A stretch of 64,000 bases of DNA from positions 5,070-69,069 of the forward strand of contig CAQPBJ010000004.1 of assembly GCA_948852945.1 (NCBI GenBank), written 5' to 3'. Below, in pieces: positions 38,901-50,214 of the stretch (the first letter of the stretch is position 1; each line of letters opens with the position of its first letter). Under the pieces are notes generated by a model that was not told where the DNA came from, searched no databases, and was given only the letters and a program-made list of their open reading frames with translations. The translations under genes were made by a program, and so were the position numbers. The stretch is from an uncultured Clostridia bacterium (GTDB taxonomy: Bacteria > Bacillota > Clostridia > TANB77 > CAG-508).

Positions 38901-41685
38901 GTACTTTTACTGTATAGTTAAATACAAAGTCTTTTCCTGTTGGCATTACATAGTCGCCTAAGTCTATTAAAAATGTTTTGATATTATCCCAGCTTTCTAC
39001 TTCTTCAGCTGTTTTCCAGTTATTTTCTGTGTTTTCAAGATTTGTTGTTGGATTTTCATTTTCTGAATAATATATTGTTGCTACTGCTTGTAGTTCTTCT
39101 GGAACAACTATTCCTTGTTCTGTCATTTTAGTTGTAAAGCTTGAATTCAAGTTTGCTTTACTTATTATGTATGTGTTTCCTTCGAATGGTATTTTTCCTA
39201 ATATTTTAATATCACTTATTGTACTTGCATAATTATTTTTTATTTGTGTTCCTATTGTTGCTGTTTGTTCTTCTTGTTCTTGGTCTACTACTGCATATTG
39301 TGGACGTATATCTGCTACTTGTGGTGATATAACTACACTTTCTTTATCATCATAATTCGTTGCTACTTGGTTTGTTAATAAGCTATTAGGTGATACCATG
39401 CTTATACTTGCTGATGTGTGGTTTACAAATTCTGTTGTATTCAAGTTATTATTTACGTCATATGCATCTTCTGCTTTATAGTAATAGTCGCTTCCATTTT
39501 CATTTGTTGCGTATAGTTCTATCTGTCTTGTAGTTGTTGCAATTCTTGGGTCTGGTGATAAGTCTACGTCTAGTGTTATTGTAAATGTTTGTGGTGTATT
39601 ATTTTTTGTTACTATCTTTATAAATCTTTGTCCATTTTCTTCTATTACTTCGTAGCTTTCAATAGTTACACTACTATTGTTTACGTTTACTTCATTTAAT
39701 TGTACATCTATTATCTCTGTTGGTACTTTTACTAAAAATATTCCGTTTTGCCATTCTGTTTGGTTATTTGATGCTGATGTTTTTGTTGTTATTGTAATTT
39801 TGTCGTTTTTCTCTGTTTCTTGCGTTGATATTGTATTTTTGCTAATACTAATTGTTGCTACTGATACTGGTGCCTCGTAGTTTGCTGTATGTCTTGTTGT
39901 TGCTGTTCCATCTCCTACTATGCTTCCTGTTAATGTTGATTTTATATATTGTAGTTCATCAAATTGTTCTCTTTCATATTTTGTTGTTATTTTTTCATCA
40001 TCTATTTCTTTTATGTTATATACATAAAAGTTTACTTCTTTTTTAACAATCTCACTTGTTTCTATTCGTATATGTTTTACTGGTAATGCGTATTTATATG
40101 GATTACTTGATGTGTATTTATCCCAATTATCTTTTGTAAATGTTTCTATAAGTTCGTCTGTTTCGTTGTTATATACTTTTATCCATCCATCATCTCCTAG
40201 CATTTGACCTGCTCCGCTAAAGTATATTCCAACATTTTGTACTACATCGTCTGCACTTTCATTTTCTGAGTTTGTTTTAATAAATACATCTGTTACGCCT
40301 GTTTCTTCTTGCATTATCATTCCTGCTGTGCTTGCATTTGTTCCTACAAAACCTTTCCACATAACTGTGTAAGAGTCATTTTCCTCTTTTTCGCTTTCAC
40401 CATTGTATATTCTTAATGGCTTTTGTTTTGATACAACATATCTGTAAGATGGTTCATATACGTATTTTCCTACTTTTATTTCAAAGCTTGTAGATTTATC
40501 GTTATTTGGTATTGAGTAATATACTAAGATTGTTGATCTAGCTACATTTGATTTATATGGATTAGTAAATTCTGTATTTGGGTTATTATATCCTTCGTAG
40601 TATGTGCTTACTGGTACTCGTAATTGTACTGCTTCTGTTCCTAAACTTTGGTAAGCTTCTAGAGGATATATTACTTTTATTCCATAGTTGTTAGTTCTTG
40701 ATAAGCTTGTAGTTATTTTTCCGTCTTCTCCTGCTATTGCTTCTCTTTCTACTGTAAATGTTCTTGTTTCTTTGTCATAGCTAAATGTTGCATTAGTTCC
40801 TGTATATGTTACTTCTATTGGGTCAAAGCCATTTAGCTGTGGTATTGTTCCTTCTACATGATTTTTCTTTAGTATTAATGCGTTTGCTGTTTCTTCTGTG
40901 TATACTGTAAATCCTAGGTTTACTATTCCTTCTTCCTCATTTACAGCATTAGATATATTACCATTTTGGTTTGTTGTATATATTCTTGTTGATGTTTTTC
41001 CATACCAATCTATATTAAAATTTACTTGTTTTGTTACTGGGGTTTCATTTCCTGATTCGTCTACATATGTTCCTGTTAAAGCTACACTATTTACTTTGCT
41101 GTAGTTATTAGTATTATTTCCTATTGCAGATATTTTGCCTGAAGTGTAAGTGTAATCCCCACTTCTTACAACACCTGTTAATAACTTTTGTGTCCCGTTA
41201 CTTAAATTATTAAATTCAATTTCTTTTATGTTGTTACCTATGTAGTTTTGTTTTAATTCTTGGTCTTTAGGAAGAGTTGTTTGTAAGTAAAAGTTTTTAC
41301 CATCTATAGTTATTTTAGCGTCTTTTAAATATCCTTCTGTTTGAACATTTAATTCCATGTATAAAGTATCGCTTGTTCCTATTTCTTTACACGTTCCACG
41401 TAGGCTCTCTGCGTAGCCGTCTGCATCTAAATCACGCAAAAAGAACGCATCGAATTTAACATTATCTGTTCCTTCGATAGCGTTATCACCTTCTTGAACT
41501 TGAGCATATGTCATTGCTCGTGCAAATTCAGCGCTATTTACTTTTTGTTTTTTAGTAAAGTGTTCTTCTTTGAAAATAAAGCTACCTACAATTGCTATAA
41601 GTAATAATAAAATTATTGCAATTGATAGTACTTTAACTTTCTTATTTTTCAAAATTCCCCTAATTTTTTCTACTAAATTTCCCAT
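26929..41685 (-). CDS. Giant cell-surface adhesin (4918 aa) with multiple repeat classes
   Basis: Single uninterrupted ORF. The N-terminus has a signal-anchor (VLSIAIILLLLIAIVGSFIF). SpaA/Cna-B-like domains follow (for example GATYSFREI..TNLYAERTYEIKEIKSPDEYEL). Then come 14 WAKxIGGS..DGG..GG repeats, three 130-aa modules and many MucBP-like units (V.VHHYIEGT...YYY). The C-terminus has a hydrophobic helix and a KKK tail. Confidence 0.93.
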   Translation of the reverse strand: MGNLVEKIRGILKNKKVKVLSIAIILLLLIAIVGSFIFKEEHFTKKQKVNSAEFARAMTYAQVQEGDNAIEGTDNVKFDAFFLRDLDADGYAESLRGTCKEIGTSDTLYMELNVQTEGYLKDAKITIDGKNFYLQTTLPKDQELKQNYIGNNIKEIEFNNLSNGTQKLLTGVVRSGDYTYTSGKISAIGNNTNNYSKVNSVALTGTYVDESGNETPVTKQVNFNIDWYGKTSTRIYTTNQNGNISNAVNEEEGIVNLGFTVYTEETANALILKKNHVEGTIPQLNGFDPIEVTYTGTNATFSYDKETRTFTVEREAIAGEDGKITTSLSRTNNYGIKVIYPLEAYQSLGTEAVQLRVPVSTYYEGYNNPNTEFTNPYKSNVARSTILVYYSIPNNDKSTSFEIKVGKYVYEPSYRYVVSKQKPLRIYNGESEKEENDSYTVMWKGFVGTNASTAGMIMQEETGVTDVFIKTNSENESADDVVQNVGIYFSGAGQMLGDDGWIKVYNNETDELIETFTKDNWDKYTSSNPYKYALPVKHIRIETSEIVKKEVNFYVYNIKEIDDEKITTKYEREQFDELQYIKSTLTGSIVGDGTATTRHTANYEAPVSVATISISKNTISTQETEKNDKITITTKTSASNNQTEWQNGIFLVKVPTEIIDVQLNEVNVNNSSVTIESYEVIEENGQRFIKIVTKNNTPQTFTITLDVDLSPDPRIATTTRQIELYATNENGSDYYYKAEDAYDVNNNLNTTEFVNHTSASISMVSPNSLLTNQVATNYDDKESVVISPQVADIRPQYAVVDQEQEEQTATIGTQIKNNYASTISDIKILGKIPFEGNTYIISKANLNSSFTTKMTEQGIVVPEELQAVATIYYSENENPTTNLENTENNWKTAEEVESWDNIKTFLIDLGDYVMPTGKDFVFNYTVKVPNGVEFNQVAYSHHGVYFSLDTENGKYKTQTEPNKLGFRIAEKYDLELNKYQIGKEKIVPGATYSFREITTNEERLEIAGEAKTGVTNLEGILRLTNLYAERTYEIKEIKSPDEYELNGDTIRFISHVNKTTGELTVEKISGTTKDEITVTKNEGENYKLIVNVEDEAKANLKITKVEQGTDVRVSRVRYKLTGYGFPENGKTVTTNINGEINLKGLKINEEYTLEEVKADGYYLASQIKFKVVNTDGTYTIEIIEGTVKESLIIEEDSIPTVNMTLEDEKIPTYNLELVKIQKKTNVNMTETEEETSDNTEETVYLAGAKFKLYKGTKELGEFITDENGKITIPNLYQYVEEKAEQEKAQYVLKEVLAPEGYAKVKDINFKVEAKDGTLQFVEELVEGQTAKQYTVEGNKVIVTVEDNPSFKLIKKDAETGELLANVKFAIYNVDNGEVPARNSKGEIIGTKETINGRGYYTVSTDANGEITADLQEGLYKAVEVEAPNKYDINKSEYYFGIGASREGKTKIEAEWAKGIGGSGGRDYIYSVTETSDGGIIAGGWIESNSIDLGNGIVVTSKNNKLYSSDGIVIKYDAEKNVEWAKAISGNTGEHINSVIETNDGSYIAGGIFYSEKIDLENGVVLKNNSKGNYDGMIIKYSSKGEVECAKVIGGSSDDKINSVIAMSDGGYIVGGTFNSKSVDLGDGVVLNNKGTYDGMIIKYTSEGKVEWAKEIGGSDQDGIESISETADGGCIVGGSFSSEIIDFENGVTLKNYGNYRDGMIIKYSSEGEVEWAKAINGSSNEFVYSVAETSDGDYIVGGYFSSKTLDLGNGIILNSETTCSGMIIKYNNNGIVEWAKGITGQSTEDRINKVIETKDKGYIAVGQFSRPTVDLGNDIILQNKGYRDGVIIKYNEEGKTEWAKGVGGSESEEIKAVVETMDGGIIVGGLFNSNSIDLESQVVLSKKGRHADGMIIKFNEVQVPEVVIKQAKGIGGSESDNIESVVATKDGGYMIAGYFGGSSIDLGNGEVLNNDLSCQRIIKYEKNGNVEWTKVINIKIYSVIETRDGGYIIGGWFRDSTIDLGNEVVLNSNGKDDGVIIKLDSSGEVEWAKEIGGNKQDVIESLKETRDGGIIVGGWFYSNNINLGKGIVLNNKGHCDGMIIKYNSEGEVEWAKGIGGSNNDHIKVVTETRDGGIIVGGDFDSTIDLGRGVILNSKGDGDGIIIKYTTDGKVEWGKAIGGSGYDKITSVAENRDGGIIAGGNFRSIEVNLENGVVLKNKNSTNKASEGMIIKYDTEGSIEWAKAIGENSNDYVEAVTTTSDGGYVVGGYFESNSIDLGNEIILNNNDTSYYSDGMIIKYSSKGETEWAKAIGGKGSSDYINSVIETRDGSYVVGGWFNSSTIDLENGLVLNKKGSSDVMIIKIAEEMGIPDIEELVVENTRKEFKITTDVNEIDNIKGGNISGEDWTPYEKVKYGDNGTKEIVMTPDENYEIIGITINGEEYPFEINEDGSYNMPQFENITEDKHIEVTYSYKENKITINKIDSITKEKLTGAKFKLDQLEERANPENVIGDLTANGQIYDTVDTENQETIDGILTSNGKETVIADKSNDITDSLGELTNNGTYYFIKQDGKYVPTNSKTYQVANGGTSGKHSTTANSYIPIDLTGKEGKYIVTINAEVISQSSNDYGYATITETTTAPSYSTSTGRFIYISGTQASSNYTSKVLDGGKIYYLHLGYRKSASTDTGDDQIVINSINVYATTTTSYNFVESEGKYIPNNLSEVNTTANSYIPIDLTDKEGRYAIVVNAETNYTGGSGYLYATLNESVIAPTYSTSTGRFMYITSTSTAKDYVTYVDGGKQYYLHLGYTHSSGTPTNVSINGVSLYKDKQFTYNFVENEGKYESNNQGQDNRTANSYIPIDLTGYVGKYNLTVNAEIESQSGYDMGYATVTENTTRPAYNSSTGRFIYISGTQKAKDYNTVLDGGKVYYLHLGYYKNASTSFGEDKFTINSINVTTNDSELYHTEVETNSDGQAITQIPFGKYELTEIETPEGYWTLEEPVIIEFRADGIHEFNIENEKKAKVIVHHYIKDTTTPLAEDEMLEGRPNEEYKTLPKVDLEKYELEKDENGEYIIPTNAMGTYTVEDIEVTYYYVPKEIPLTVKHYIEGTETSVPLEDGSLAEDEVYIGQEGEEYETSSKNDIDWKYELVKEPENKKGTYEYSEVTVTYYYKLKNYDITTEVVGHEEVNEAGETITVKGGTISGEGQETYENVIVDETSTKDIIVEADEKYKIKSIKVQKIDAEGTITEEEITLEENTKTYTLDKFNNVITDIKVIAEFEKLQGTVTVHHYIEGTTNKVPLKDGTEAQDENSTGYVGDMYATKAREDITDKYRLVQEPENASGNYIEGNIEVIYYYQAIPAKVTVHHYIEGTTDKVPLGDGSLAQDEVINGFVTDDYTTSKANVDNKYELVAIPANSEGKMTEDEIIVTYYYRLKDTSVLVHYYKEGTTESISEDALIEGKVDDEYTTEEADDIPNYYELVEEPENKNGIMTVEQTVVTYYYKLKEYSYVVNYLEKDTNEVLHEQKQGGNYEYGTTIDANTEKIDIDGYIFDSFNKEILTITNGENVINIYYTKRTDLSYKVNYLEKDTNKVLNPQKDQDGMKFAEVITSSNEIIDIDGYTYDSVDKPFLVITTGENILNIYYVKRNDLSYKVNYLEKDTNQVLNIQKVVNNMTFEDVITASNEIIEIDGYNYDSVDRETLTITTEENVINIYYTKRNDLSYKVNYLEKDTNKVLNPQKVVDNVTFEDVITSSDEVIEIDGYNYNSVDKDNLTITTGENIINIYYTKRNDLSYKVNYLEKNTDKVLSTQKVVNDVTFEDVITSNDEIITIDGYNYDSVDKETLTITTEENVINIYYVKRNDLSYKVNYLEKDTDKVLSTQKVVNDVTFEDVITSSDEIIEIDGYNYDSVDKDELVIQTGENLINIYYTKRNDLSYKVNYLEKDTDKVLSTQKVQDGMIFEDVITSSDEVITIDGYNYDSVDKDELVITTEENAINIYYTKRNDLSYKVNYLEKDTNKVLSEQKVVNNVTFEDVITSSDEIITIDGYNYDSVDKETLIITTSENVINIYYTKRTDLSYTVNYLEKDTNKVLKDQKVVDNVTFEDVINSEDEVVDIYGYNYDSANIDELVISTKDNVINLYYTKKDATVVVHHYKEGTTEKVANDVTVTGKVGDDYETTIAEDLPSKYELAQAPVNATGTMTEDTIEVIYYYKLKSTKVIVHHYEEGTTNKLSEDVEIEGLIDSTYTTTSADDIPIKYILVETPANATGIMTEEVIEVTYYYAVKDAELNIYYLEKDTDIELAKPEKQTGKVGEMYRTDAKEIEGYTLVENSGNTTGQLEVEPLTVIYYYLKNTRATVQYIDITTGEILDERTETGLVGDEFVTETKTFDDYILVQEPEQKTVNMTKDEIVLKYYYLHVSGGVIEQHIDVISGDVLYNGTHEGNEGDEYNIPSKTFTGYDLVEDRLPANSEGYMTVSPITVTYYYIHRAKVTAQYIDKTTGEKITPDVVENGHEDDPYTTENKVFEGYKLVQVPENSNGNMTKEDTIVTYYYVRETLGVVERHLDVLTNEALVAEKQYYGYAEDPYETHEQTIPGYDLVRDRYPENATGKMGIEQIVVTYYYSKKTQVQVKYVDKITGEEIAEEEVINGHKGDNYKAEEKEIPGYDLVEVPTNKEGTMTDDITEVIYYYIRPAKVIANYYDIDTKETIAAEEVIDGHEGNEYETVEKEVKYYNLVEMPQNAKGNMTAEDTRVDYYYKKKDFNLKVEKQVKEIAYNGQVLSINGNIGKVELDKNKIASTEMVVTYEIKVTNTAELKGGAELIENIPSGMTMNELDNKDWVIHEDTAILSVEDLEPGQERSYNVVMRWTPSENNLGMKENIAEIVKVDNEAGFEEITIEDNKGKADLVISIKTGAEDDNTIVKLAILAIFAILGITVTVIIKKK
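29330..31245 (-). repeat. Nine tandem in-frame repeats of 213 nt (71 aa) inside the giant gene
   Basis: The units read DLSYKVNYLEKDTNKVL..QKVVNNVTFEDVITSSDEIIEIDGYNYDSVDK..LTITTEENVINIYYTKRN. A 213-nt periodicity of the antisense string CTTTTTCTAAGTAGTT is visible at about 29520, 29730, 29945, 30155, 30365, 30575, 30790, 31000 and 31210. Confidence 0.85.
32880..34080 (-). repeat. Three copies of a module of about 130 aa inside the giant gene
   Basis: TANSYIPIDLTGKEGKYIVTINAE..GYATITE..TAPSYSTSTGRFIYISGTQ..GGKIYYLHLGYRK occurs three times, with divergence between copies. Confidence 0.8.
34650..37335 (-). repeat. Fourteen repeats of about 64 aa, beta-propeller-type by pattern, inside the giant gene
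   Basis: Consensus: VEWAKxIGGSxxDxIxSVxETxDGGYIVGGxFxSxxIDLGNGVVLxNKGxxDGMIIKYxxxGE. I counted 14 WAK-type starts. Confidence 0.8.
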
Positions 41686-41985
41686 CTCTAAGTAACTCCT
41701 TTAAAACAAATACTAATATTTAAATAATCTTAGTTTTTATTTTAAATACTTATTAGGCTCTGTCAATGCCAGTTTTTTCAGTTATTTGATTTTAATTTGT
41801 AGGAAATTTTCTCTTTGTTTGCTATAACCCTTATAAACACTTCAAAAGCTACGTACCACTTATTTCCAATTAAAAATAAGTAAAAACTTAATATCCTTTA
41901 CTTTACAAATTTCAATTTTTTCTAGGGAAATCAAGAAATTCTTTAATTTTATTTACTATTTTAGCTTTAAAATTTTTTCATTATA

Positions 41986-42139
41986 AAAGAACAATAGTGG
42001 GCTGATAAAAATTTGCTAAACTTTAATAAGCAACGTTCAGCCCACGTTTAATTGTTCGTCCGCGAAAATTCTGAAAGAATTTTCTGTGGAATGTATTTAT
42101 ATTATAGGAAGTTCGGAGAACTTTCCTATAATATAAAAA
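41986..42139 (+). repeat. 154-bp direct repeat, copy A (three-hairpin element)
   Basis: Base-for-base identical to 48544-48697. Hairpin 1 is GAACAATAGTGGGCTGA..TCAGCCCACGTTTAATTGTTC. Hairpin 2 is GAAAATTCT-GAA-AGAATTTTC. Hairpin 3 is TATATTATAGGAAGTTC-GGA-GAACTTTCCTATAATATA. Confidence 0.95.
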
Positions 42140-42159
42140 AAGCAGGTTTATAAACCTGC
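42135..42159 (-). terminator. Terminator of the small peptide gene
   Basis: GCAGGTTTA/TAAACCTGC stem. On the minus strand it is followed by T7. Confidence 0.7.
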
Positions 42160-42179
42160 CTTAGTATATGTTTTATAAA

Positions 42180-42284
42180 TTATATCAACATTTCTTTATC
42201 AACTTTACCTGCGAAAATGCTTGGTAAATGTTCCATATCATAATTATTATTCATTTGTGCAAAATCGTAATTTTCAAAATCCAT
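42180..42284 (-). CDS. Small acidic 34-aa peptide
   Basis: RBS AAAGGAGATAGAAAAT precedes ATG 42284. The product is MDFENYDFAQMNNNYDMEHLPSIFAGKVDKEMLI. It sits between two terminators, so it is a separate transcription unit. Confidence 0.45.
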   Translation of the reverse strand: MDFENYDFAQMNNNYDMEHLPSIFAGKVDKEMLI

Positions 42285-42400
42285 ATTTTCTATCTCCTTT
42301 TGTTTAGTTTTTCCAACGACATATTTATTATACCACTTTTTTGTTTTTATGTAAATCTTTGTTAACAATTTTTTACTATTTTGTAATTTTTTTCTTAAAT

Positions 42401-42441
42401 AAAAAACGGGACACCGGAGAACAAATTTCGTTCTCCGGTGT
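42401..42441 (-). terminator. GC-rich terminator
   Basis: ACACCGGAGAAC / GTTCTCCGGTGT 12-bp stem. On the minus strand it is followed by CCCGTTTTTT. Confidence 0.85.
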
Positions 42442-42470
42442 TTAATCATTGCATACTTAGATTCGGTGGC

Positions 42471-42833
42471 TCAGGAGTCACCTTCCTCTTTTTTCTGCAT
42501 CTCCGCCATGGTTATTCTTTCTCCATTCTTGCACACGATGTACACTTTTGCCGGATGATCGCTCATATATTTTAACATTTCGTCAATAAATATATCAGTT
42601 TTTCCGGCCAGTGCCACCCTGTTTAAGAAATTGTCGTATGCCGACGCGGAGCAGTATAATGTGATGTTGTTGACTGTAAGTGTTTGCCTTAATCTGTTGT
42701 AGGCCTCTTTTTCATGCTCCATGAACATGCCATAATAGTATTCCTGCATCAGTTTCACTTCTTCATCTTCGCAACACATTACATGACGTGTTTCTTCTTT
42801 TGGCTTCCGCCATTTTTTGAAAATATCTAACAT
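42471..42833 (-). CDS. Hypothetical protein (higher-GC islet)
   Basis: 120 aa with no recognisable motif. I counted 27/60 G+C at 42481-42540, against 13/60 at 43801-43860. Confidence 0.6.
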   Translation of the reverse strand: MLDIFKKWRKPKEETRHVMCCEDEEVKLMQEYYYGMFMEHEKEAYNRLRQTLTVNNITLYCSASAYDNFLNRVALAGKTDIFIDEMLKYMSDHPAKVYIVCKNGERITMAEMQKKEEGDS

Positions 42834-42983
42834 GATTTTCTCCCTTCGTGCTAATGTTGTTATGTAACCTATTGTTTATTATACTCTAATTCTCGCTTTT
42901 TGTAAACTTTTGTACTTTCTAATCTAAAATAATTTCTTGACTTTTCCTTATATAGGTATTATAATTTTATCGTTATCTAAATC

Positions 42984-43059
42984 GGGCCATTAGCTCAGCT
43001 GGTAGAGCAGCAGACTCTTAATCTGAAGGTCCGGGGTTCGATCCCCCGATGGCTCACCA
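42984..43059 (+). tRNA. tRNA-Lys (anticodon CUU)
   Basis: Sequence GGGCCATTAGCTCAGCTGGTAGAGCAGCAGACTCTTAATCTGAAGGTCCGGGGTTCGATCCCCCGATGGCTCACCA. It folds as a cloverleaf with anticodon loop CT-CTT-AA and an encoded CCA end. Confidence 0.93.
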
Positions 43060-43081
43060 AAACGTTCCAAAAACCAAATGA

Positions 43082-43112
43082 AAACTCACTGATTTTACAA
43101 GTGAGTTTTTTT
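43082..43112 (+). terminator. Terminator after tRNA-Lys
   Basis: AAACTCAC / GTGAGTTT stem followed by a T run. Confidence 0.65.
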
Positions 43113-43166
43113 CATTGTACAAATATAGAATAATTTCACATTTTATTATAGAAAGAGGTGATATTT

Positions 43167-43439
43167 ATGGCTCAAACATTAGTTAATTTTAGAATAGATG
43201 AATCAACAAAAAAACAAATGGAACAAATATGTAGTGAATTAGGAATAACAATGTCTACTGCATTTAATATATTTGCTAAAAAAGTAATTCGTGAAAAGAG
43301 AATACCTTTTGATGTTTCTATTGACCCATTTTACTCTGAAAGTAATATGAAAGCATTATCAAAATCAATAAAAGAATTAGAACAAGGCAAAGTAGTTGTA
43401 AAATCAATGGCAGAATTAGAGGCGATGGCAGATGAATAA
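43167..43439 (+). CDS. relB: RelB/DinJ-family type II antitoxin
   Basis: RBS AGAGGTG. The product is MAQTLVNFRIDESTKKQMEQICSELGITMSTAFNIFAKKVIREKRIPFDVS..., which has a ribbon-helix-helix N-terminus. Confidence 0.8.
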   Translation: MAQTLVNFRIDESTKKQMEQICSELGITMSTAFNIFAKKVIREKRIPFDVSIDPFYSESNMKALSKSIKELEQGKVVVKSMAELEAMADE

Positions 43440-43440
43440 T

Positions 43441-43579
43441 TTATCATTTACAAAAGCCTTTAAAAGAAAATTTAAGTGGCTATTGGAGTAGAAGAATTGA
43501 TGAAGCTAATAGATTAGTTTATAGAATAGTAAATAGTCAAATAGAAATAGTACAATGTAAAGGGCATTATAACAACTAA
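43441..43579 (+). pseudogene. 5'-truncated YoeB/Txe-family toxin remnant
   Basis: Only the C-terminal part survives: ..LKENLSGYWSRRIDEANRLVYRIVNSQIEIVQCKGHYNN*. The ATG that overlaps the antitoxin stop is in another frame and terminates after 19 codons. Confidence 0.65.
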
Positions 43580-43814
43580 TAAGTTTAGTAGTAATTCTGA
43601 GCAAATAATAAAAGCACCACATTACGCTTCGCCAAGCTATGTGGTGTTTGTCATATTTATATGGTAGCACACATTTCTGTGGCTCTCATTTTCTATTTAT
43701 ATTATACAAAGATAATAAGACTTTGTCAAAAATGCTTTATTCTAAAATATAATCTTATGCTTGAATATTACTTCTATTATGTATACAATTATAAAAAAAT
43801 ATGGAGTAAAAAAT

Positions 43815-46800
43815 ATGTCTGAAACTAAAGATAATATTAGAAGAATTATAAGTAATAACGAATTTTTAGATTATAAAAAAGTTCTTGGTAAAGATAACCT
43901 AGAAACTGTAGAATTTACTTTAGTATTATTAAAACAATATTATGGTTTTTCCACTACAGAAATCAGCTCGATTTATGACTATTCCGAAGAAGATTTTGTT
44001 TCTGAACTTAATGAGTCTAATATTGATTTTTTCCAATTATCAGAAGAACAATTCTTTTCTAAGCTATCTGATAATAAAAAAGAAATTTTTAAACAATTAG
44101 CTCATAATATTGTTTCACGTGTAAAACCAGAAAAATTAAAAGAACTTATTTCTTCTGATGAATTACTATCTGTTGATATAGATTCGTTTAATAACTATTT
44201 AGATGAACTCGAAAAAGAAAAACAAGAAATATTTAAAATATTGAGTACTAGTGATTTAAGTCAAATTTTACCTAAGAGTTTTTTCGATTGTGATTTTTTA
44301 GATAAAATTAATTTAGAAAATTCTGGTGCTCGTTTGGATATGGAAAATTTCAACTATGATGCCAGAGTTTCTGGTTCATTAAAAGGTTGCGAATTACTTT
44401 CTTTTTCTATAAATCACTATATTGATCCTGATGCGTCGGAACTTTTATCTATGTGGTCTCATATTAGTGCTGATTGTTTAGATGAAAGTCAATATATAGC
44501 TGTAGCTCAATATTATCTTTTACATGGTTTGATTTTATCTGAAAAAGAACATTTTTTATTTCAAGCTCCTAATATTCAAGATGAGCTTCAATTATTATAT
44601 GAAAAAGTCTTAAAAGACAATAAGTATTCAGCATATGGATATCTAAATTTATATAATTGTATGACTCCTGAAGCACAAGCTAAAAATAGCGCATATATTG
44701 ATAGAATAATTACTTTAGCTAAAAATAGTGATGATAAATATTCTATTGAAAAGTCTATACAATATATGAGTCTTTCTCAATTTGATAAATATTTTCCTGA
44801 CATTTTAAAATTATATACTAATGCTGATGGAACAATGAATTTAGACAATTTTATTTCAATGGTTTGGGGTTATTGTAATTCAGAAGTTCAACTTAATTAC
44901 TTTGAGAAATTTAAAGATATTATTAATCAAACAGCTACTAACAATAATAAGGATTTTTATGTTTATAGGCTATTAGAATCTTCTAGTGAAGAAGCTCAAA
45001 AAGTCTTTTTGCAAAATCTTTTGGAAGAAAGTCGTACTAATGGTGGAGCTTTAAGTTTAAGTAAAGTTGATGATATTTTGTCTCATACTTCAAAAAATGT
45101 AGATATTTCTGATGATTATTTTGAAGAAATTTTAAGCTTAGTTAATCCCGAAAAATATTCTTCAGTTGTTAAATTTTATAATGTATGGCAGAATATTGGT
45201 TTACATGCTCAACAAAAATATTTGCCTACAATGCTTAACCATCTTGAAATTTTTAATTTTGTTGAGTTGTGGAATCGAACTGATTTGGAAGCTCAAAAAA
45301 ATTTATATAATGAATTAATTCCTATTATAGAAAAAGACTATCCTTCTTTAGAACATCAATTTAAAGGCGATATTTATATTTCTCTTTTAAAAAATATGCC
45401 TGAAAAAGATGCTTCTGAATGGATACATAATGATGTACCTAAATTTATTGATGCTTTTAGAAAAAAATATAATGATAATGAAAAAGATTTTATAGATTAT
45501 AGCAAGTATACTGATTTTGAATTAGCTAATATTCTTTTACAATTAGAAAATAGTGGTGATTTAAATGATTCTAATATTAATTCTATTTTAAATAATTTGC
45601 CTACTTTGGGTAAACAAATTATTTATAGAGTTATTAATTGTAATTCTAAAATGATTCAAAATGAAGCTTCAAAAATTTTATCAAAACTGGCACAAAATCC
45701 TAAAAATGCTGGTCAGCTTTTGACTGAAATTGAAAATATTTTTGCCCAAAGAAATTTACCTGATTTTGTGAAATTTTATAAGTATTTTGAGCTTTTACAA
45801 TATGATGATAAAATAAATTTTTCATCTTCCTATCTTTCTCCTGCTTTAGCTAATACTCAGAGTAAAACTTTAAGTAAAAGAATTATTTTTTCAGATTTAA
45901 TGCGAATATCTATGGATTCAAATAATAAATCGATGAAAAATTTTGTGGATACTTTAGAACGCGGTAATGCTTTATATGTAAAAGTAATGAACAATCAACT
46001 TGATGTTCAAGATTTTTCTAATGAAGATAGGTTTTTAGCACAAGAATATACTAAAACTTTATATTTTTTATATGAATTATCAGATGCTAGTGTAGTAGAT
46101 AAAAAAGATGGTAGAAAGCTTTCGTTAACTGGTGATATAAAACAGGATTTTGAGTCTTTAGGTAGAAGATATTCACATGATGGCCTTATTAAAAATTTAC
46201 CTGACCAAATTTTAAGAAGTATTATTGGTCCATATCAAGAACTCTTTGAAGGCATTGATTCCGTAGAAAAAATCAAAGAATATATGCATCAAAAAATTGA
46301 AACTTCGAATAAAAGACATTTTGAACTTGCTGATAGTAAAATTGATTTGAAACCTGGTGATTTAGTTAAAGGTATTAAAGATAGCTCTAGAGTTTCCCCT
46401 TCTCTTGTATCAGATGGTATAAGGGCTGGTGAATTTTTAGGTGTTGACAGTCATTCTGACCTTACTCCTTTGGATACTGATTTTAGCGCAATATTACCTG
46501 GAAATGAGGGTCAAGGATTTATTGGTAAGCTTAATAATACTATGTCTGCTAGCTATGGAGATATGTTTTTTGTAGTAAAATATAATCCAACTAAAATGGA
46601 GTATTCTAGACAAAATGATGATTTAAATGTTCTGTCTCAAGAAATAAAAATGAGTGATAAAATATCGTCAAGAAATGAACCTGATACTATTATAAAAAGG
46701 ATTAATGATAGGTCTAGAAATGAATATGATGCTAAAAAATTAGAAATATTTTCTAGCAAATTTTCTGGTGAACACTATGGTATTAGAACAGGTGTAGGTA

Positions 46801-48080
46801 TTACTGATATTGATTATATTGTTTTGACAAGTGGCTATAATAAACGTTTAGGTTTTGAATTAGCTATGAATGGAACTTATATTCCTGTTTTTGATGCTAA
46901 ATCTGAAGAATTGTTATTTTCTCCTGAAGATTATGAATCAATTAGAAGTCAAATGCAAGGTTTATCTTTTTATGATGCTGGTAATTTTGTGGTTGATGAG
47001 TCAGCTAAAACTGCTCAAGCAAAAGAAATTGTAGATGAATTATTTTCTACTGGTGATGTTGACGAATCTATTAGTGAAAAAGAGGCTAAGTCTAAAAGAA
47101 GTGCTATACAATATCAAGTTGTAAAAGCTTTGTCTGAAAATATGGGAATAGGTCTTGAAAATCATGTTACTGGTAATATGACTGAAGGATTTGTTGAATT
47201 TATAGATACCGGTTCTACTGGCCGTGGTACTAATGTTCCTGGTAGCGGTGATTTTGATTTCATGATGAAAGTTGATAAAAATATTATAGATAATCCTTCT
47301 AGAATGGAAGAATTTAAAACTCATTTAAGAAAAGTATTAGCTATTCCTTCAAATGACCCAGAAACTTCTACAGAAGAATTAGGCGGAAACTTTAGATATA
47401 AAAAGGTCTCTATTGAAGGTATAGCAGAACCTGTAGATATTGACGTTACTTTTGCTCCTAAAAATGAAGAAATTACTTATTCAACTGATATGTGTGTTAA
47501 AGATAGATTAAATCATCTTAAAACTTCAGACCCTGAGGGGTATAAGTATACAGTTGCGAATATAGTTCTTGCTAAAAGATTACTTAAAAAAGAAGGTTTG
47601 TATAAGAAACATAACAGTGATGGTGCAACGCAATATGGCGGTTTTGGTGGTGTTGGCGTAGAAAATTGGATTCTTCAAAATGGCGGTTCTTTAATAACTG
47701 CTATGGATAGCTTTTTAGAAGCTTCAGCAAAAACTAAAGAATTTGATGAATTTAAGGAACTTTATCCAATTTTTGATTTTGGTGAAAATCATGCTTCAAA
47801 AGGTTCTTATCCTCATGATACTTTCATAAATGGCTTGACTCAAGAAGGATATTTGCAGATGAAAACTAGATTTAGAGAATTGAAAAACGAATTAACGTCT
47901 ATTGAAGTAGTTTCAGATAAAACTCGTTTAGCTGAAACTATTATAGAAGACACAGAAAACTTGGCTAAAGATGCTAGAAAAGGTTCTGTTTTGGCTACAA
48001 TGTCTGAACTTACAAATTTATATAATGAAATTGAAAATCCATCGATTACTAATAAAGAGGTTAATGATTATGACAAATGA
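43815..48080 (+). CDS. Large (1421 aa) protein with helical repeats and a C-terminal Pol-beta-superfamily nucleotidyltransferase-like domain
   Basis: GGAG lies 9 nt before ATG 43815. NTase signature GSTGRGTNVPGSGDFDFMMKV is at 47211-47270. Downstream, KKHNSDGATQYGGFGGVGVENWILQNGGS resembles the neck of class I CCA/poly(A)-type enzymes. The N-terminal half has recurring W/L-x(5-7)-EAQ helical units at 44640-45330. Confidence 0.75.
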   Translation: MSETKDNIRRIISNNEFLDYKKVLGKDNLETVEFTLVLLKQYYGFSTTEISSIYDYSEEDFVSELNESNIDFFQLSEEQFFSKLSDNKKEIFKQLAHNIVSRVKPEKLKELISSDELLSVDIDSFNNYLDELEKEKQEIFKILSTSDLSQILPKSFFDCDFLDKINLENSGARLDMENFNYDARVSGSLKGCELLSFSINHYIDPDASELLSMWSHISADCLDESQYIAVAQYYLLHGLILSEKEHFLFQAPNIQDELQLLYEKVLKDNKYSAYGYLNLYNCMTPEAQAKNSAYIDRIITLAKNSDDKYSIEKSIQYMSLSQFDKYFPDILKLYTNADGTMNLDNFISMVWGYCNSEVQLNYFEKFKDIINQTATNNNKDFYVYRLLESSSEEAQKVFLQNLLEESRTNGGALSLSKVDDILSHTSKNVDISDDYFEEILSLVNPEKYSSVVKFYNVWQNIGLHAQQKYLPTMLNHLEIFNFVELWNRTDLEAQKNLYNELIPIIEKDYPSLEHQFKGDIYISLLKNMPEKDASEWIHNDVPKFIDAFRKKYNDNEKDFIDYSKYTDFELANILLQLENSGDLNDSNINSILNNLPTLGKQIIYRVINCNSKMIQNEASKILSKLAQNPKNAGQLLTEIENIFAQRNLPDFVKFYKYFELLQYDDKINFSSSYLSPALANTQSKTLSKRIIFSDLMRISMDSNNKSMKNFVDTLERGNALYVKVMNNQLDVQDFSNEDRFLAQEYTKTLYFLYELSDASVVDKKDGRKLSLTGDIKQDFESLGRRYSHDGLIKNLPDQILRSIIGPYQELFEGIDSVEKIKEYMHQKIETSNKRHFELADSKIDLKPGDLVKGIKDSSRVSPSLVSDGIRAGEFLGVDSHSDLTPLDTDFSAILPGNEGQGFIGKLNNTMSASYGDMFFVVKYNPTKMEYSRQNDDLNVLSQEIKMSDKISSRNEPDTIIKRINDRSRNEYDAKKLEIFSSKFSGEHYGIRTGVGITDIDYIVLTSGYNKRLGFELAMNGTYIPVFDAKSEELLFSPEDYESIRSQMQGLSFYDAGNFVVDESAKTAQAKEIVDELFSTGDVDESISEKEAKSKRSAIQYQVVKALSENMGIGLENHVTGNMTEGFVEFIDTGSTGRGTNVPGSGDFDFMMKVDKNIIDNPSRMEEFKTHLRKVLAIPSNDPETSTEELGGNFRYKKVSIEGIAEPVDIDVTFAPKNEEITYSTDMCVKDRLNHLKTSDPEGYKYTVANIVLAKRLLKKEGLYKKHNSDGATQYGGFGGVGVENWILQNGGSLITAMDSFLEASAKTKEFDEFKELYPIFDFGENHASKGSYPHDTFINGLTQEGYLQMKTRFRELKNELTSIEVVSDKTRLAETIIEDTENLAKDARKGSVLATMSELTNLYNEIENPSITNKEVNDYDK

Positions 48081-48516
48081 AATGGCTTTTGCAATAGCTG
48101 AAATTAACGAAATATTAAACTATTTATCTATCCAGCAAGTGAATAAAATCCCTTTAAAATTAAGGAATATGTTCACTTTAGTTTCACATGCCAATTATAT
48201 TCCTCATATTGATCCTAATAAAAGCATATTAGAGCAGGATATTAGTACAAAAACTAAGGATATTTTAGTATTATTTTATAGAAATTATTGGTCTGATAGT
48301 GATAATAAAAATGAGATTGATAAGATTTTAGACGAAAATGAGAATAGATACCAACTTGAACTTAGTCAAAAGTATAGTACCTATAATATTTTTAATTCTT
48401 CTAATAGCGCTATGACTCTTCCAGAGAATGATGTTCAGGATAATAAACTTATTGTTAAGAAGGATAACTTTATTACCAAGATTATAAATAAATTAAAATC
48501 TTGGTTTAGTCATTAA
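48070..48516 (+). CDS. Small protein (about 148 aa) translationally coupled to the large NTase-domain gene
   Basis: GAGG is followed by ATGATTATG (starts at 48064, 48070 or 48082). These overlap the upstream TGA at 48078-48080. I recognise no motif in the product. Confidence 0.6.
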   Translation: MTNEMAFAIAEINEILNYLSIQQVNKIPLKLRNMFTLVSHANYIPHIDPNKSILEQDISTKTKDILVLFYRNYWSDSDNKNEIDKILDENENRYQLELSQKYSTYNIFNSSNSAMTLPENDVQDNKLIVKKDNFITKIINKLKSWFSH

Positions 48517-48543
48517 AATTGTTTATTATAATGCTATTTTAAC

Positions 48544-48697
48544 AAAGAACAATAGTGGGCTGATAAAAATTTGCTAAACTTTAATAAGCAACGTTCAGCC
48601 CACGTTTAATTGTTCGTCCGCGAAAATTCTGAAAGAATTTTCTGTGGAATGTATTTATATTATAGGAAGTTCGGAGAACTTTCCTATAATATAAAAA
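48544..48697 (+). repeat. 154-bp direct repeat, copy B
   Basis: Identical to 41986-42139. It lies between the stop of the small ORF and its terminator. Confidence 0.95.
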
Positions 48698-48699
48698 TA

Positions 48700-48729
48700 G
48701 ACGTTCTATTTAAGAACGTCTTCTTTTTT
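48700..48729 (+). terminator. Terminator of the + strand two-gene unit
   Basis: GACGTTCT / AGAACGTC stem followed by TTCTTTTTT. It overlaps the last codons of the convergent gene. Confidence 0.6.
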
Positions 48730-50214
48730 GTTTATTTTAAAGTTTGATATATGTATTGATGTTATTGGTATTAATGCTATTATATATGGAATTATATATC
48801 TTGATTTTGCTTCCCATAAGATATGAAATGCAAATCCTCCTATAAAAATTGTTAATAAAAATATTACTTCTAATGAAAGTTTTTTTCTATTTTGTATTAT
48901 GATTATTAAACTGCTGGATGTTATTAATAAAAGTGTTACTTTTTGATAAAATGTTACTGGATTTTCAGCATTTTTTAATATTTTATTTTCTCCGATGTTA
49001 TTATTCCAAAATGCTGAATATGTATTTTCTCCCCACATTGATGCTAGCTTTTTAGTGTAAAAATCTGCTGTGTATTTTATATTTTTTGATAAATATTTTA
49101 CTCTTTCTTTTATCTTTTCTTTATATTCATTTTCTATATTTTCTTTTTGGTGTAGTGCTGGTTCGGCTATAGGTTCGTTGTACCATCCGTTTCCTCTCCA
49201 TGATTCTTCCATTGCCATTAAAATAAAACTTGCTTTTGGATATCCTTTATTTTTATCTAAATTATATTTTTGAAAATAATAGTTTTCTACTAAATTCGCT
49301 GGAACGAATGAGATTATTAAATATATTGCTATTATTATTAAGTTTATCGCACTTTTCTTCCATTCTGTTTTATTAAATTCTTTTATTAAATTTAATATTA
49401 AATATACTACTGTTGCTATTATAAATATTAAACTATTCATTCGCATCATATATGCAAAAGCTGTTAGTATTGCTGCTATTACTATGTGTTTTATTTTTTT
49501 GCTTTGTGTATATTTCATTATATAATATACTGCAAATAGTGATAGCCCTAAGCTTGGAATGTCTCCATATATAAATGTTGTTAGCATTAATAATGGTGCA
49601 CATGTTAATATTAATATTATTGGTAAGGTTGTACTTGTTTTGTATTGTTTAGATAGTTGATTACATATCTTGTATATTGCAAAAATAATGGCTAAATTTC
49701 CAATTATATTTACTACTCTTAGTATTGCTATTACATCAAAATATGTCATTTTAAAGGCTAATTTATATACATATGCTAAGTGTATTTGTTGAGGATATTT
49801 TTCTATATATTCTTTTAGTGTTATTCCTGCATACGTTTTATTGTTTAGAAATTCATTATCGTCTCCTCTATAAAAGGTTTGTGCTAGGTTTGCTACATGT
49901 ATTGAGTCACCGCCTATTCCTGGTCTTACTAAAATTATCCATAATATACTTAATATAATGTATATTACTAATGCTGCTATAAATATATTTTTTCTAATCT
50001 TTTTTTCTTTTTCGCTTTTTTCTAACTTTTTGTCTAATTTTCTTGTTATAAAATATATTAATATCCCTACTAATATAATTGAAATTATGTAAAATATATT
50101 ATTATAATTTATTATTACATGTTCTGATAAGTCTAGTTTGGCTGTAAATATTAAGTTTATTCCTGTTACAATTAATAGTGAAATTATTCCTATTATATAT
50201 ATGATTTTTTTCAT
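48706..50214 (-). CDS. Polytopic membrane protein, probably a GT-C-fold glycosyltransferase (GT39/ArnT-like)
   Basis: 502 aa with about 11 hydrophobic segments. The first external loop carries acidic motifs (GGDSIHV, RGDDNEF). The call rests on overall resemblance only. Confidence 0.45.
   Translation of the reverse strand: MKKIIYIIGIISLLIVTGINLIFTAKLDLSEHVIINYNNIFYIISIILVGILIYFITRKLDKKLEKSEKEKKIRKNIFIAALVIYIILSILWIILVRPGIGGDSIHVANLAQTFYRGDDNEFLNNKTYAGITLKEYIEKYPQQIHLAYVYKLAFKMTYFDVIAILRVVNIIGNLAIIFAIYKICNQLSKQYKTSTTLPIILILTCAPLLMLTTFIYGDIPSLGLSLFAVYYIMKYTQSKKIKHIVIAAILTAFAYMMRMNSLIFIIATVVYLILNLIKEFNKTEWKKSAINLIIIAIYLIISFVPANLVENYYFQKYNLDKNKGYPKASFILMAMEESWRGNGWYNEPIAEPALHQKENIENEYKEKIKERVKYLSKNIKYTADFYTKKLASMWGENTYSAFWNNNIGENKILKNAENPVTFYQKVTLLLITSSSLIIIIQNRKKLSLEVIFLLTIFIGGFAFHILWEAKSRYIIPYIIALIPITSIHISNFKINKKEDVLK

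Follow-up and report, generated by a model that had tools for sequence, protein, structure and literature searches.

Introduction

Archaeal class I CCA-adding enzymes and the RNA-tailing enzymes Cid1, TUT4, TUT7, Trf4 and GLD-2 have two lobes, a Pol-beta nucleotidyltransferase (NTase) catalytic lobe with a GS..DxD motif and a third aspartate, followed by a helical lobe. NTases are also known as toxins (MenT and AbiEii), and PanA is known as a hyperpromiscuous antitoxin domain. Small proteins that serve short C-terminal peptides of larger ones have been described as well: FliS, FlgN and FliT are small helical flagellar chaperones that bind ~40 C-terminal residues of their substrates, and SepF and FtsA, whose client peptide is the FtsZ tail, carry a membrane-targeting amphipathic helix, as does MinD. 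Here we analyze a 64,000-nucleotide stretch of DNA from an uncultured Clostridia bacterium (contig CAQPBJ010000004.1, hereafter the window), which carries a module of two overlapping genes, one for a large protein of 1421 amino acids (aa) with an NTase domain at its C-terminus and one for a small protein of 148 aa.

An initial annotation, made from the letters and open reading frames (ORFs) of this stretch, had proposed an NTase-based defence or conflict system with the small protein as a partner or immunity protein. Our analysis shows that the module is not a defence-island NTase-immunity pair. The large protein belongs to a widespread family in which an NTase of the CCA-adding and terminal uridylyltransferase (TUTase) type is fused to a domain that may be ADP-ribosyltransferase (ART)-like, and the small gene is linked to a short C-terminal tail found on many unrelated proteins. 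The family, the fusion of ART-like and CCA/TUTase-like domains, the linkage of tail and adaptor, and a CGG codon arrangement in sister species have no match in the libraries or literature searched; the folds themselves are known.

Results

A large-protein family with a conserved C-terminal core

The features of the module are as follows.

43815..48080, + strand: large gene, 1421 aa (ORF), stop TGA at 48078-48080; predicted cytoplasmic multi-domain enzyme
43815..45626, + strand: N-terminal lineage-specific helical region, aa 1-604, kept in the nearest relatives only
45627..46331, + strand: all-helical domain of the family core, aa 605-839, alignable across 60 homologues (AlphaFold2 predicted local distance difference test score, pLDDT, ~80-95)
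46332..47066, + strand: invariant alpha/beta middle domain with a putative ART-like fold, aa 840-1084 (conservation, model and fold matches)
47067..47909, + strand: Pol-beta NTase, catalytic lobe and helical lobe (motifs, model and Foldseek)
47916..48035, + strand: putative type-B docking tail, aa 1368-1407, ...LAKDARKGSVLATMSELTNLYNEIENP... (profile score; low-confidence helices in the model)
47949..47957, + strand: position matching the candidate +1 frameshift site of sister species; in frame in the window (GAC ACA GAA)
48055..48060, + strand: Shine-Dalgarno-like AAGAGG for the small gene, within the end of the large gene (translational coupling); seen in the sequence and kept in the sister species L002
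48070..48516, + strand: small gene, 148 aa, with homologues in all close loci; ~150-aa tail-associated family with a putative C-terminal cationic amphipathic helix

The gene boundaries agree with the initial annotation, which had the downstream ORF of about 148 aa start in the last codons of the large gene. The large ORF (43761/43815-48080, + strand) has an ATG at 43815 that is preceded by GGAG and is also the start of the database protein P0001. Comparison with homologues places the start of the small gene at the second ATG (48070), 9 nt after GAGG at 48057-48060, and the two genes overlap by 11 nt within the string ATGATTATGACAAATGA (48064-48080).

Neither protein could be placed in a described family, as had been stated from the sequence. 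The large protein gave nothing significant against Pfam, NCBIfam, PADLOC or PDB sequences, whether the query was the single sequence or a profile of 60 sequences; the small protein had no match in Pfam, PHROG or PADLOC. The family of the large protein is nevertheless large, a point that the initial annotation had missed together with the ART-like middle domain. A word-indexed homologue search had suggested a family of six members, which understated it: a genome scan and an exhaustive HMMER search gave at least 1,244 clusters (50% identity), of which 821 have E <= 1e-30. The 62 loci from a pattern scan of species-representative genomes were mostly in gut metagenome-assembled genomes (MAGs) labelled uncultured Bacilli, and some were labelled Clostridia, Tenericutes or Saccharibacteria.

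The conserved core of the family is the C-terminal ~800 aa, and the N-terminal extensions (median 602 aa) are clade-specific and unalignable across clades. The AlphaFold2 model of the window core (aa 605-1421; pLDDT 85.7, predicted template modelling score 0.83) contains a helical domain, an alpha/beta middle domain, a two-lobed NTase and low-confidence terminal helices. In the N-terminal half, the five degenerate helical units reported previously are present, beginning at aa 279, 350, 386, 457 and 485, and they include a degenerate duplication of ~107 aa (aa 279-385 and aa 386-492). When aa 268-384 were aligned with aa 385-505 by hhalign, the motif D[KD]YFxxIL fell in register with a score of 25.3, compared with at most 16.1 in 20 column shuffles, which gives the duplication modest support at the sequence level. 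The large protein of the window contains no signal peptide and no transmembrane segment, in line with the earlier description, and an N-terminal hydrophobic segment was found in none of 216 family members. Seven of the 216 (P0007, P0094, P0101, P0128, P0142, P0156 and P0171) carry a C-terminal transmembrane tail anchor, which may be an alternative membrane route to a docking tail with a small partner.

Some family members are giants of 3,000-6,000 aa in which the 800-aa core is embedded (L063:80-15382, P0165 of 6114 aa, P0168 of 4932 aa, P0111, P0125 and P0126). Pfam domains are nearly absent from the extra parts of these proteins, with Transglut_core in 2 of 16. In the uncultured Bacilli MAG locus L008 (182-4828 and 10023-12995), two or three paralogous large-family genes lie together.

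A Pol-beta NTase of the CCA-adding and RNA-tailing type

The NTase catalytic residues are GS at aa 1133-1134, DFD at 1146-1148 and a third aspartate at 1210 (in VDIDVTF), and the helical lobe opens around GGFGGVGVENWIL. Among 60 diverse homologues, conservation of GS, D1146/D1148 and D1210 is complete or at least 98%, and the GGFGGVG..ENW segment is nearly invariant. The domain thus shows the hG[GS]-x9-13-Dh[DE]h signature of the Pol-beta superfamily with its third carboxylate, and it adopts an NTase fold in a confident predicted model; the GS..DxD signature and the neck likened initially to class I CCA-adding and poly(A)-type enzymes are both borne out. The NTase appears to be active, as GS, DxD and the third aspartate are invariant or nearly so.

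In a Foldseek search, the best PDB match of the NTase was 1UEU, an archaeal class I CCA-adding enzyme (E = 3.5e-4, template modelling (TM) score by target 0.37). Further matches included Cid1, TUT4, TUT7, Trf4, GLD-2 and CdnE (E = 1e-3 to 1e-1; CdnE E = 7e-3). The matches were exclusively Pol-beta NTases, and RNA-tailing enzymes outranked the cGAS/DncV-like NTases (CD-NTases). Like the CCA-adding and RNA-tailing enzymes, the domain consists of a catalytic lobe followed by a helical lobe, and the helical lobe starts with a Gly-rich G-G-[FL]-G-G-x-G..E motif, which we take to correspond to RGFSGYLCELL of the A. fulgidus CCA-adding enzyme. Unlike those enzymes, with whose structures it shares only 11-17% sequence identity, the NTase sits at the C-terminus of a protein of 1,400 aa that also has a putative ART-like domain. 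The head-neck-body-tail organization of class I (archaeal) CCA-adding enzymes and their pairing of NTP_transf_2 with tRNA_NucTransf2 are not found: neither of these two Pfam models matches the large protein at threshold, and the tRNA-binding body and tail domains are missing, leaving the head and neck equivalent alone (~280 aa) plus the tail peptide. Below threshold, NTP_transf_2 and SMODS match the protein, the latter with 13.6-17.5 bits against a cut-off of 26.5 (E = 0.005-0.08), and a PADLOC model for the cyclase of cyclic-oligonucleotide-based anti-phage signalling systems (CBASS) matches the GS..DxD segment over 47 aa (E = 0.001, also sub-threshold). We conclude that the large protein carries a genuine Pol-beta NTase at its C-terminus, and that this is of the CCA-adding/poly(A)/TUTase type.

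A separate HEPN domain was considered and rejected. HEPN_RiboL-PSP matches 12 of 60 members, all below the gathering threshold (best 26.1 versus 28.4), and the two members with a significant stretch map it to the helical lobe of the NTase itself. There is no conserved arginine in an Rx4-6H arrangement, the window having KGSYPH, and the combination that defines MNT-HEPN toxin-antitoxin pairs is not present.

A candidate ADP-ribosyltransferase-like middle domain

Nearly all strictly invariant columns of the family fall in the middle domain, which is marked by the motifs GD, SDxTPLDTDxS, TR, ExF, HYGIRTG and ExAxNGxYIP. The invariant residues are D849, D882, T884, D887, D889, E977, H987, Y988, R991 and T992 (protein numbering). 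Modelled alone, the domain reached a pLDDT of 77. Its PDB matches are weak (E >= 0.27, TM ~0.2-0.35), and ART folds account for more than two thirds of the 50 PDB matches listed, including DarT, PltA, exotoxin A/cholix, CT/LT, Tpt1 and CteC. Tpt1 is the best-probability PDB match (probability 0.44, TM by target 0.60). Matches in BFVD, a set of predicted viral structures, are stronger (E ~1e-3, probability 0.97-0.99) and are phage proteins, among them a DUF3626 protein (DUF3626 is the SopF domain), a polyvalent-associated-domain protein and one labelled minor capsid protein. No haloacid dehalogenase (HAD) structures appeared among the fold matches, and a HAD phosphatase explanation of the DTDxS motif was therefore dropped.

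The structural matches of the middle domain, weak as they are in the PDB, are almost exclusively ART-fold proteins; the closest known ones are the nucleic-acid-directed DarT and Tpt1/KptA and phage ART domains (including the DUF3626/SopF type). Unlike those proteins, the domain is matched by no ART Pfam model, and its conserved GD, D-x-T-P-L-D-T-D, E-x-F and H-Y-G-I-R-T-G map to no recognized H-Y-E, R-S-E or R-H-R-R signature. Based on the predicted model, an ART-like middle domain is a well-motivated lead. Known ARTs of the DarT/Tpt1 type act on DNA or RNA, and such an activity would suit the adjoining RNA-type NTase. KptA/Tpt1 is an RNA-repair ART, and a fusion of an ART with a CCA/TUTase-like NTase was not found in the surveys consulted (PMC9503650).

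The small gene is linked to a C-terminal tail

Each close relative (L001-L007) has the small gene after the large one (56-67% identity), and the pair is also conserved in several distant clades (L051, L055, L058, L070, L081, L115, L128, L158 and L159). Even with a broad profile, however, the small gene is missing from 59 of 70 large-gene loci, and the tail is missing from the same 59. The small-protein family is itself sizeable, with at least 1,789 proteins at E <= 1e-3, all of ~150 aa. In the contexts of its distant members, the small gene always follows another gene by a few nt (median gap from partner stop to small-gene start, 11 nt), and the upstream proteins vary: a split large-family protein in L070 and a PHP-domain protein in L072/L073. 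A metagenome scan added 80 small-family loci. The 61 adjacent pairs contain at least 24 unrelated upstream classes, such as the NTase core, GH10+PHP, HD, mTERF-like and zincin-like proteins, and most have no known domain. Comparison of the other tail-bearing proteins with the large-protein core by hhalign detected no hidden homology (probability < 1%). Since the small gene is missing from so many large-gene loci and follows so many unrelated proteins, it is linked to the tail and not to the NTase, and the role of NTase partner or immunity protein that had been suggested for it is not supported.

The upstream partners in L070, L072, L074 and L076 are alike solely in their last ~40 aa. The commoner form of the tail, type A, has the consensus ...K[ST].Q.LG[KR]E[TS]L.EQ.D...LD.IEQAQ.... 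The type-A profile matches 64 of 815 ORFs, and all the matches are C-terminal and adjoin a small gene, 39 of them directly upstream of it and most of the others immediately after it or in tandem. In some loci, one small gene is surrounded by an array of tail-bearing genes. Within the large family, the type-A tail is found only alongside the small gene (L051 and L055; L070, L115 and L128 in the metagenome set).

The tail of the window belongs to another type. By eye, its LAETII had resembled the type-A LGKETL motif, but it scores -1.2 bits, no better than shuffles. A type-B profile was built from four tails, with the window excluded: L081 (large-family), L076a/b (zincin-like) and L113 (HD). The window tail scores 12.6 bits against this profile, and none of 1,000 shuffles scored as high (maximum 7.2). 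The profile also finds tails beside small genes in L079, L080 and L082; the L079 tail reads ...SELKSNYREIENP..., compared with ...SELTNLYNEIENP... in the window. From the tail score alone, a small partner was predicted for two distant large-family proteins, P0016 and P0026, and it was found in both (E = 6e-39 and 2e-35). The window thus has a ~40-aa tail with a small gene within a few nt of its end. Its small protein belongs to a distinct subfamily, whose nearest relatives follow proteins with another (non-type-A) tail.

The last 14 residues of the small protein are predicted to form a strongly amphipathic, cationic helix with a mean hydrophobic moment of 0.78, where the 95th percentile of the remaining small protein is 0.47, and a net charge of +3 to +6. 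By analogy, this helix resembles the membrane-targeting helices of FtsA, MinD and SepF. A protein of ~120-150 aa paired with a short, conserved C-terminal client peptide is also what SepF and FtsA, and FliS, FlgN and FliT, have in common with the module, where docking is our proposal and the analogy is functional only. Sequence or demonstrated structural relationship to these proteins is lacking; at least 24 unrelated client enzymes occur here, compared with one cytoskeletal or flagellar protein there; and the partner is always encoded beside its client, unlike in those systems.

Two of the small-gene neighbourhoods differ from that of the window. In L074 (5744-8459), a tail-bearing protein of 326 aa with no recognized function and the small gene lie right after a Mob_Pre relaxase gene; AbiEii and a resolvase/recombinase gene are found on the same element. 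In L076 (4705-10741), the small gene is clustered with genes for two zincin-like (HEWSH) tail-bearing paralogues and for Macro, PIN_12 and NUDIX proteins; this neighbourhood is conflict-system-like, in contrast to the window's.

A candidate +1 frameshift in sister species

In the closest homologues, the large gene has an apparent end 36 aa earlier, followed by a spacer of ~104-129 nt. The spacer encodes the tail in the +1 frame, which is open throughout (L001:4332-4460, L002:8102-8252, L003:4826-4973, L005:7637-7784 and L006:4312-4459). In a DNA alignment, L001, L002, L003, L005 and L006 read GAT TCA CGG A, one base more than the window, and the site, GATTCACGGA, is identical in these five species, which differ by 25-40% in protein sequence. 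The CGG at the site is the sole CGG among ~1,390 codons in each frameshifted gene, and the gene of the window has none. In the +1 frame, roughly as many synonymous as non-synonymous differences are seen, which is suggestive of purifying selection. The window is sister to L002, at 75% identity, and the other clade shares 60-63% identity with the two; by phylogeny, the frameshifted arrangement is therefore ancestral and was lost in the window lineage.

In glass-sponge mitochondria, +1 shifts have been described at CGG_A codons that are very rare, the extra base lying 5' of GGA (PMC5009743). The arrangement here is like those sites in that the extra base is 5' of GGA at an otherwise unused CGG codon. 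Compared with programmed +1 shifts in general (prfB, Ty1/Ty3 and CGG_A), it has no obvious stimulatory Shine-Dalgarno-like element or slippery P-site codon. From these alignments, the UCA-CGG-A site is a candidate for a programmed +1 ribosomal frameshift in the sister species.

Genomic context of the module

Three further features lie around the two genes.

48699..48721, strand undefined: terminator-like hairpin, common to the module and the convergent PMT_2 gene
41981..42151, + strand: 171-nt direct repeat, left copy, species-specific; context only, outside the module
48539..48709, + strand: 171-nt direct repeat, right copy, species-specific; context only

The module had been described as a cassette bracketed by repeats, with its own promoter and terminator, next to a tRNA and a toxin-antitoxin remnant in a defence or accessory island. 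The individual elements are real: the two copies of the 171-nt repeat, a tRNA-Lys(ctt) at 42984-43059 and an orphan RelB antitoxin gene at 43158-43439, with no RelE-like ORF after it in the window. The terminator hairpin is also present, although shared with PMT_2, whereas the promoter-like matches occur at chance (46 versus 39 +/- 7). The repeat copies are 96% identical, contain hairpins and each lie just 3' of a minus-strand gene. An Rfam scan of 41600-48900 matched the tRNA alone, and the repeat is not a known RNA. The repeat is found in the same-species contigs L007 and L078 and is missing in L002, and it does not mark the module.

What had been read as an island looks different across the family. 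Clustering of the neighbours in 70 loci gave no recurrent one, except that part of the family has the small gene. A Pfam scan of 196 flanking genes returned chiefly housekeeping families (Resolvase and ResIII, two each), and the neighbours in 60 loci are housekeeping genes, among them those for enolase, purA, TIM, gyrB, aminoacyl-tRNA synthetases, polA, clpB, greA, rpsF and the str operon. The rpsF-ssb-rpsR cluster is also among the large-gene neighbourhoods, and one distant large-family gene lies downstream of rpsL-rpsG-fusA-tuf. PADLOC gave no defence signal around the large-gene loci, and homologues of the large protein were absent from sequenced phages, plasmids and IMG/VR contigs. The only defence-related neighbour in the window itself is the orphan relB, which is accompanied by the tRNA. 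The large protein of the window shares 74.6% identity with that of its syntenic sister L002, within the 62-99% seen for the flanking genes. Since the repeat is species-specific, the rate of change is that of the neighbours and the context is housekeeping, the module is, from these comparisons, a stable chromosomal feature and not a defence-island cassette.

Several other observations were made nearby. The relB gene is polymorphic: 159 nt (window 43145-43303) are missing from the same-species L007 and L078, with loss of its N-terminal half. Two small ORFs on the - strand, 42180-42449 (89 aa) and 42471-42833 (120 aa), have no family match and are syntenic in L002 (85% and 73% identity), beyond the tRNA/relB segment. 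An ORF of 4,918 aa (26929-41685, - strand) has a hydrophobic segment at each terminus and long tandem arrays of ~75-95-aa repeats, and resembles a giant surface protein.

Discussion

We tentatively favour, at somewhat under an even chance, a reading in which the large protein is an enzyme with a docking tail and the small protein is its adaptor. The enzyme is probably a nucleic-acid-directed NTase working with an NAD+/ADP-ribose-type domain. In this scheme, for which we infer physical binding, membrane recruitment, enzyme substrates and actual ribosomal frameshifting from the patterns above, the fast-evolving N-terminal helical array would recognize a target or substrate, and the ART-like domain would have NAD+ or an ADP-ribose-type compound as its ligand or, like Tpt1 and DarT, work on the end of a nucleic acid. 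The catalytically intact NTase would attach nucleotides, without a template, to the 3' end of an RNA or to a different hydroxyl acceptor. The last ~40 residues would be a separate, portable tail, most probably bound by the translationally coupled small protein, whose amphipathic helix most probably takes the enzyme to the membrane; otherwise the small protein would escort or regulate the enzyme. Its relatives would provide the same service for many unrelated tail-bearing enzymes. In the sister species, the tail would be reached only via the +1 frameshift at the unique rare CGG, such that tail-less and tail-bearing forms would coexist, and the window lineage, having lost the extra base, would make only the tail-bearing form. 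It is possible, though we are more doubtful here, that this reflects a general docking system of gut Firmicutes that had gone unrecognized, in which membrane-associating adaptors of ~150 residues and a portable tail of ~40 residues bring dozens of unrelated enzymes, the one studied here among them, to the membrane or a delivery apparatus, and in which the CGG frameshift sets the tail-bearing fraction in some lineages.

Several points weigh against the adaptor reading. Most large-family members have neither tail nor partner, and the partner would therefore be accessory to the enzymology. The tail of the window clade fails to match the commoner type-A tail, the frameshifted tails score just 3.6-7.9 bits against the distant type-B profile, and the co-variation of small-protein subfamily with tail type is only suggestive (3 of 8 versus 1 of 35). 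The synonymous and non-synonymous counts in the +1 frame are small, and the membrane helix is proposed from the hydrophobic-moment calculation alone. The ART assignment comes from low-scoring PDB matches (E >= 0.27, TM ~0.2-0.35), with neither a canonical H-Y-E or R-S-E triad nor the Tpt1 R-H-R-R tetrad assignable in the middle domain.

Other explanations account for parts of the same evidence. The tail could be a secretion, translocation or packaging signal, with the small protein as an export chaperone or adaptor that hands enzymes to a delivery machine and the large protein as an effector that reaches other cells by injection or release. As in effector repertoires, the partner bodies are varied, look like enzymes and for the most part have no known function; several tail-bearing genes can be arrayed around one small gene; one pair lies on the Mob_Pre/resolvase element and another beside Macro, PIN_12 and NUDIX genes; the best matches of the middle domain include phage minor capsid and large polyvalent-protein-associated-domain proteins; and some family members lie within proteins of 3,000-6,000 aa. 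The client binding of FliS, FlgN and FliT and the Glu-rich C-terminal signals of type IV secretion effectors would be precedents. We consider this unlikely, given that no secretion-system genes recur near the pairs, the large-gene neighbourhoods are housekeeping, copies are absent from phage, plasmid and IMG/VR collections, most large-family members have no tail or partner, and the enzyme has no accompanying immunity-like gene. A toxin-antitoxin or toxin-immunity pair, with the NTase (with or without the ART-like domain) as the toxin and the small protein as a promiscuous antitoxin that grips toxins by a common handle, would recall the two adjacent, translationally coupled genes of type II NTase toxin pairs (MenT/AbiEii and MNT-HEPN) and the small partner that PanA offers to unrelated large ones. 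The tight, overlapping arrangement, the conservation of the pair in the clade, the toxin-like enzymes among the partner bodies and the pair on a mobile element near AbiEii are in keeping with it. However, 59 of 70 large-gene loci have intact catalytic motifs and no small gene. In five species, moreover, the tail would be reached only by a frameshift, and an antitoxin that depends on the tail would miss most of the enzyme molecules. Both facts weaken the antitoxin reading. The NTase is of the CCA/TUTase type and not DUF1814 or a minimal MNT, the linkage is via a C-terminal tail, and no obligate, toxin-specific partner of the kind seen in type II toxin-antitoxin or polymorphic toxin-immunity systems is found. 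The small protein has no DNA-binding domain and no PADLOC match, where the large protein has only the sub-threshold cyclase match (E = 0.001); the partners include GH10+PHP and mTERF-like proteins, and the gene changes at the rate of its syntenic neighbours (74.6% versus 62-99%). We regard this explanation as rather unlikely.

A lineage-specific RNA-processing or repair enzyme is a quite unlikely alternative in our judgement. It would restore or tail the 3' ends of tRNA or other RNA, with the Tpt1-like domain cleaning ends, as part of the core metabolism of reduced-genome gut bacteria, and the small protein would be dispensable. The housekeeping neighbours, including the str operon and rpsF-ssb-rpsR, the chromosomal gene that changes like its neighbours, the CCA-adding enzyme as the best NTase match and Tpt1, a member of the RNA-repair ARTs (PMC9503650), as the best-probability match of the middle domain all point this way. 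They are set against a hypervariable N-terminal half, the paralogues, giant fusions and patchy presence of the family, the missing tRNA-binding body and tail domains, and a middle domain with no Tpt1 Pfam match and no assignable R-H-R-R tetrad. Signalling defence of the CBASS kind, in which the N-terminal array senses phage and the NTase makes a nucleotide second messenger that activates an effector, is highly improbable. It would explain the weak SMODS and PADLOC cyclase matches on the GS..DxD segment and the presence of CdnE among the Foldseek matches, but all of the SMODS and cyclase matches are below their family thresholds, RNA-tailing enzymes outrank CD-NTases in the fold search, the loci are outside defence islands and there is no adjacent or recurrent effector gene. 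The defining pair of CBASS, an above-threshold SMODS domain with an adjacent Cap effector, is thus not seen.

The adaptor reading aside, the module brings to notice at least 1,244 clusters of proteins in reduced-genome gut lineages, in which two nucleic-acid-modifying folds, one of them putative, lie in one invariant core of 800 residues with no curated model or name. Identification of the substrate would annotate more than 1,000 proteins. A genomic rule also emerges, by which a recognizable C-terminal tail predicts an adjoining small-family gene (2 of 2), and this rule would link at least 24 unrelated, mostly uncharacterized protein classes into one functional network. The UCA-CGG-A arrangement is a testable candidate for a +1 frameshift in a chromosomal gene, for which the window provides a natural in-frame control.

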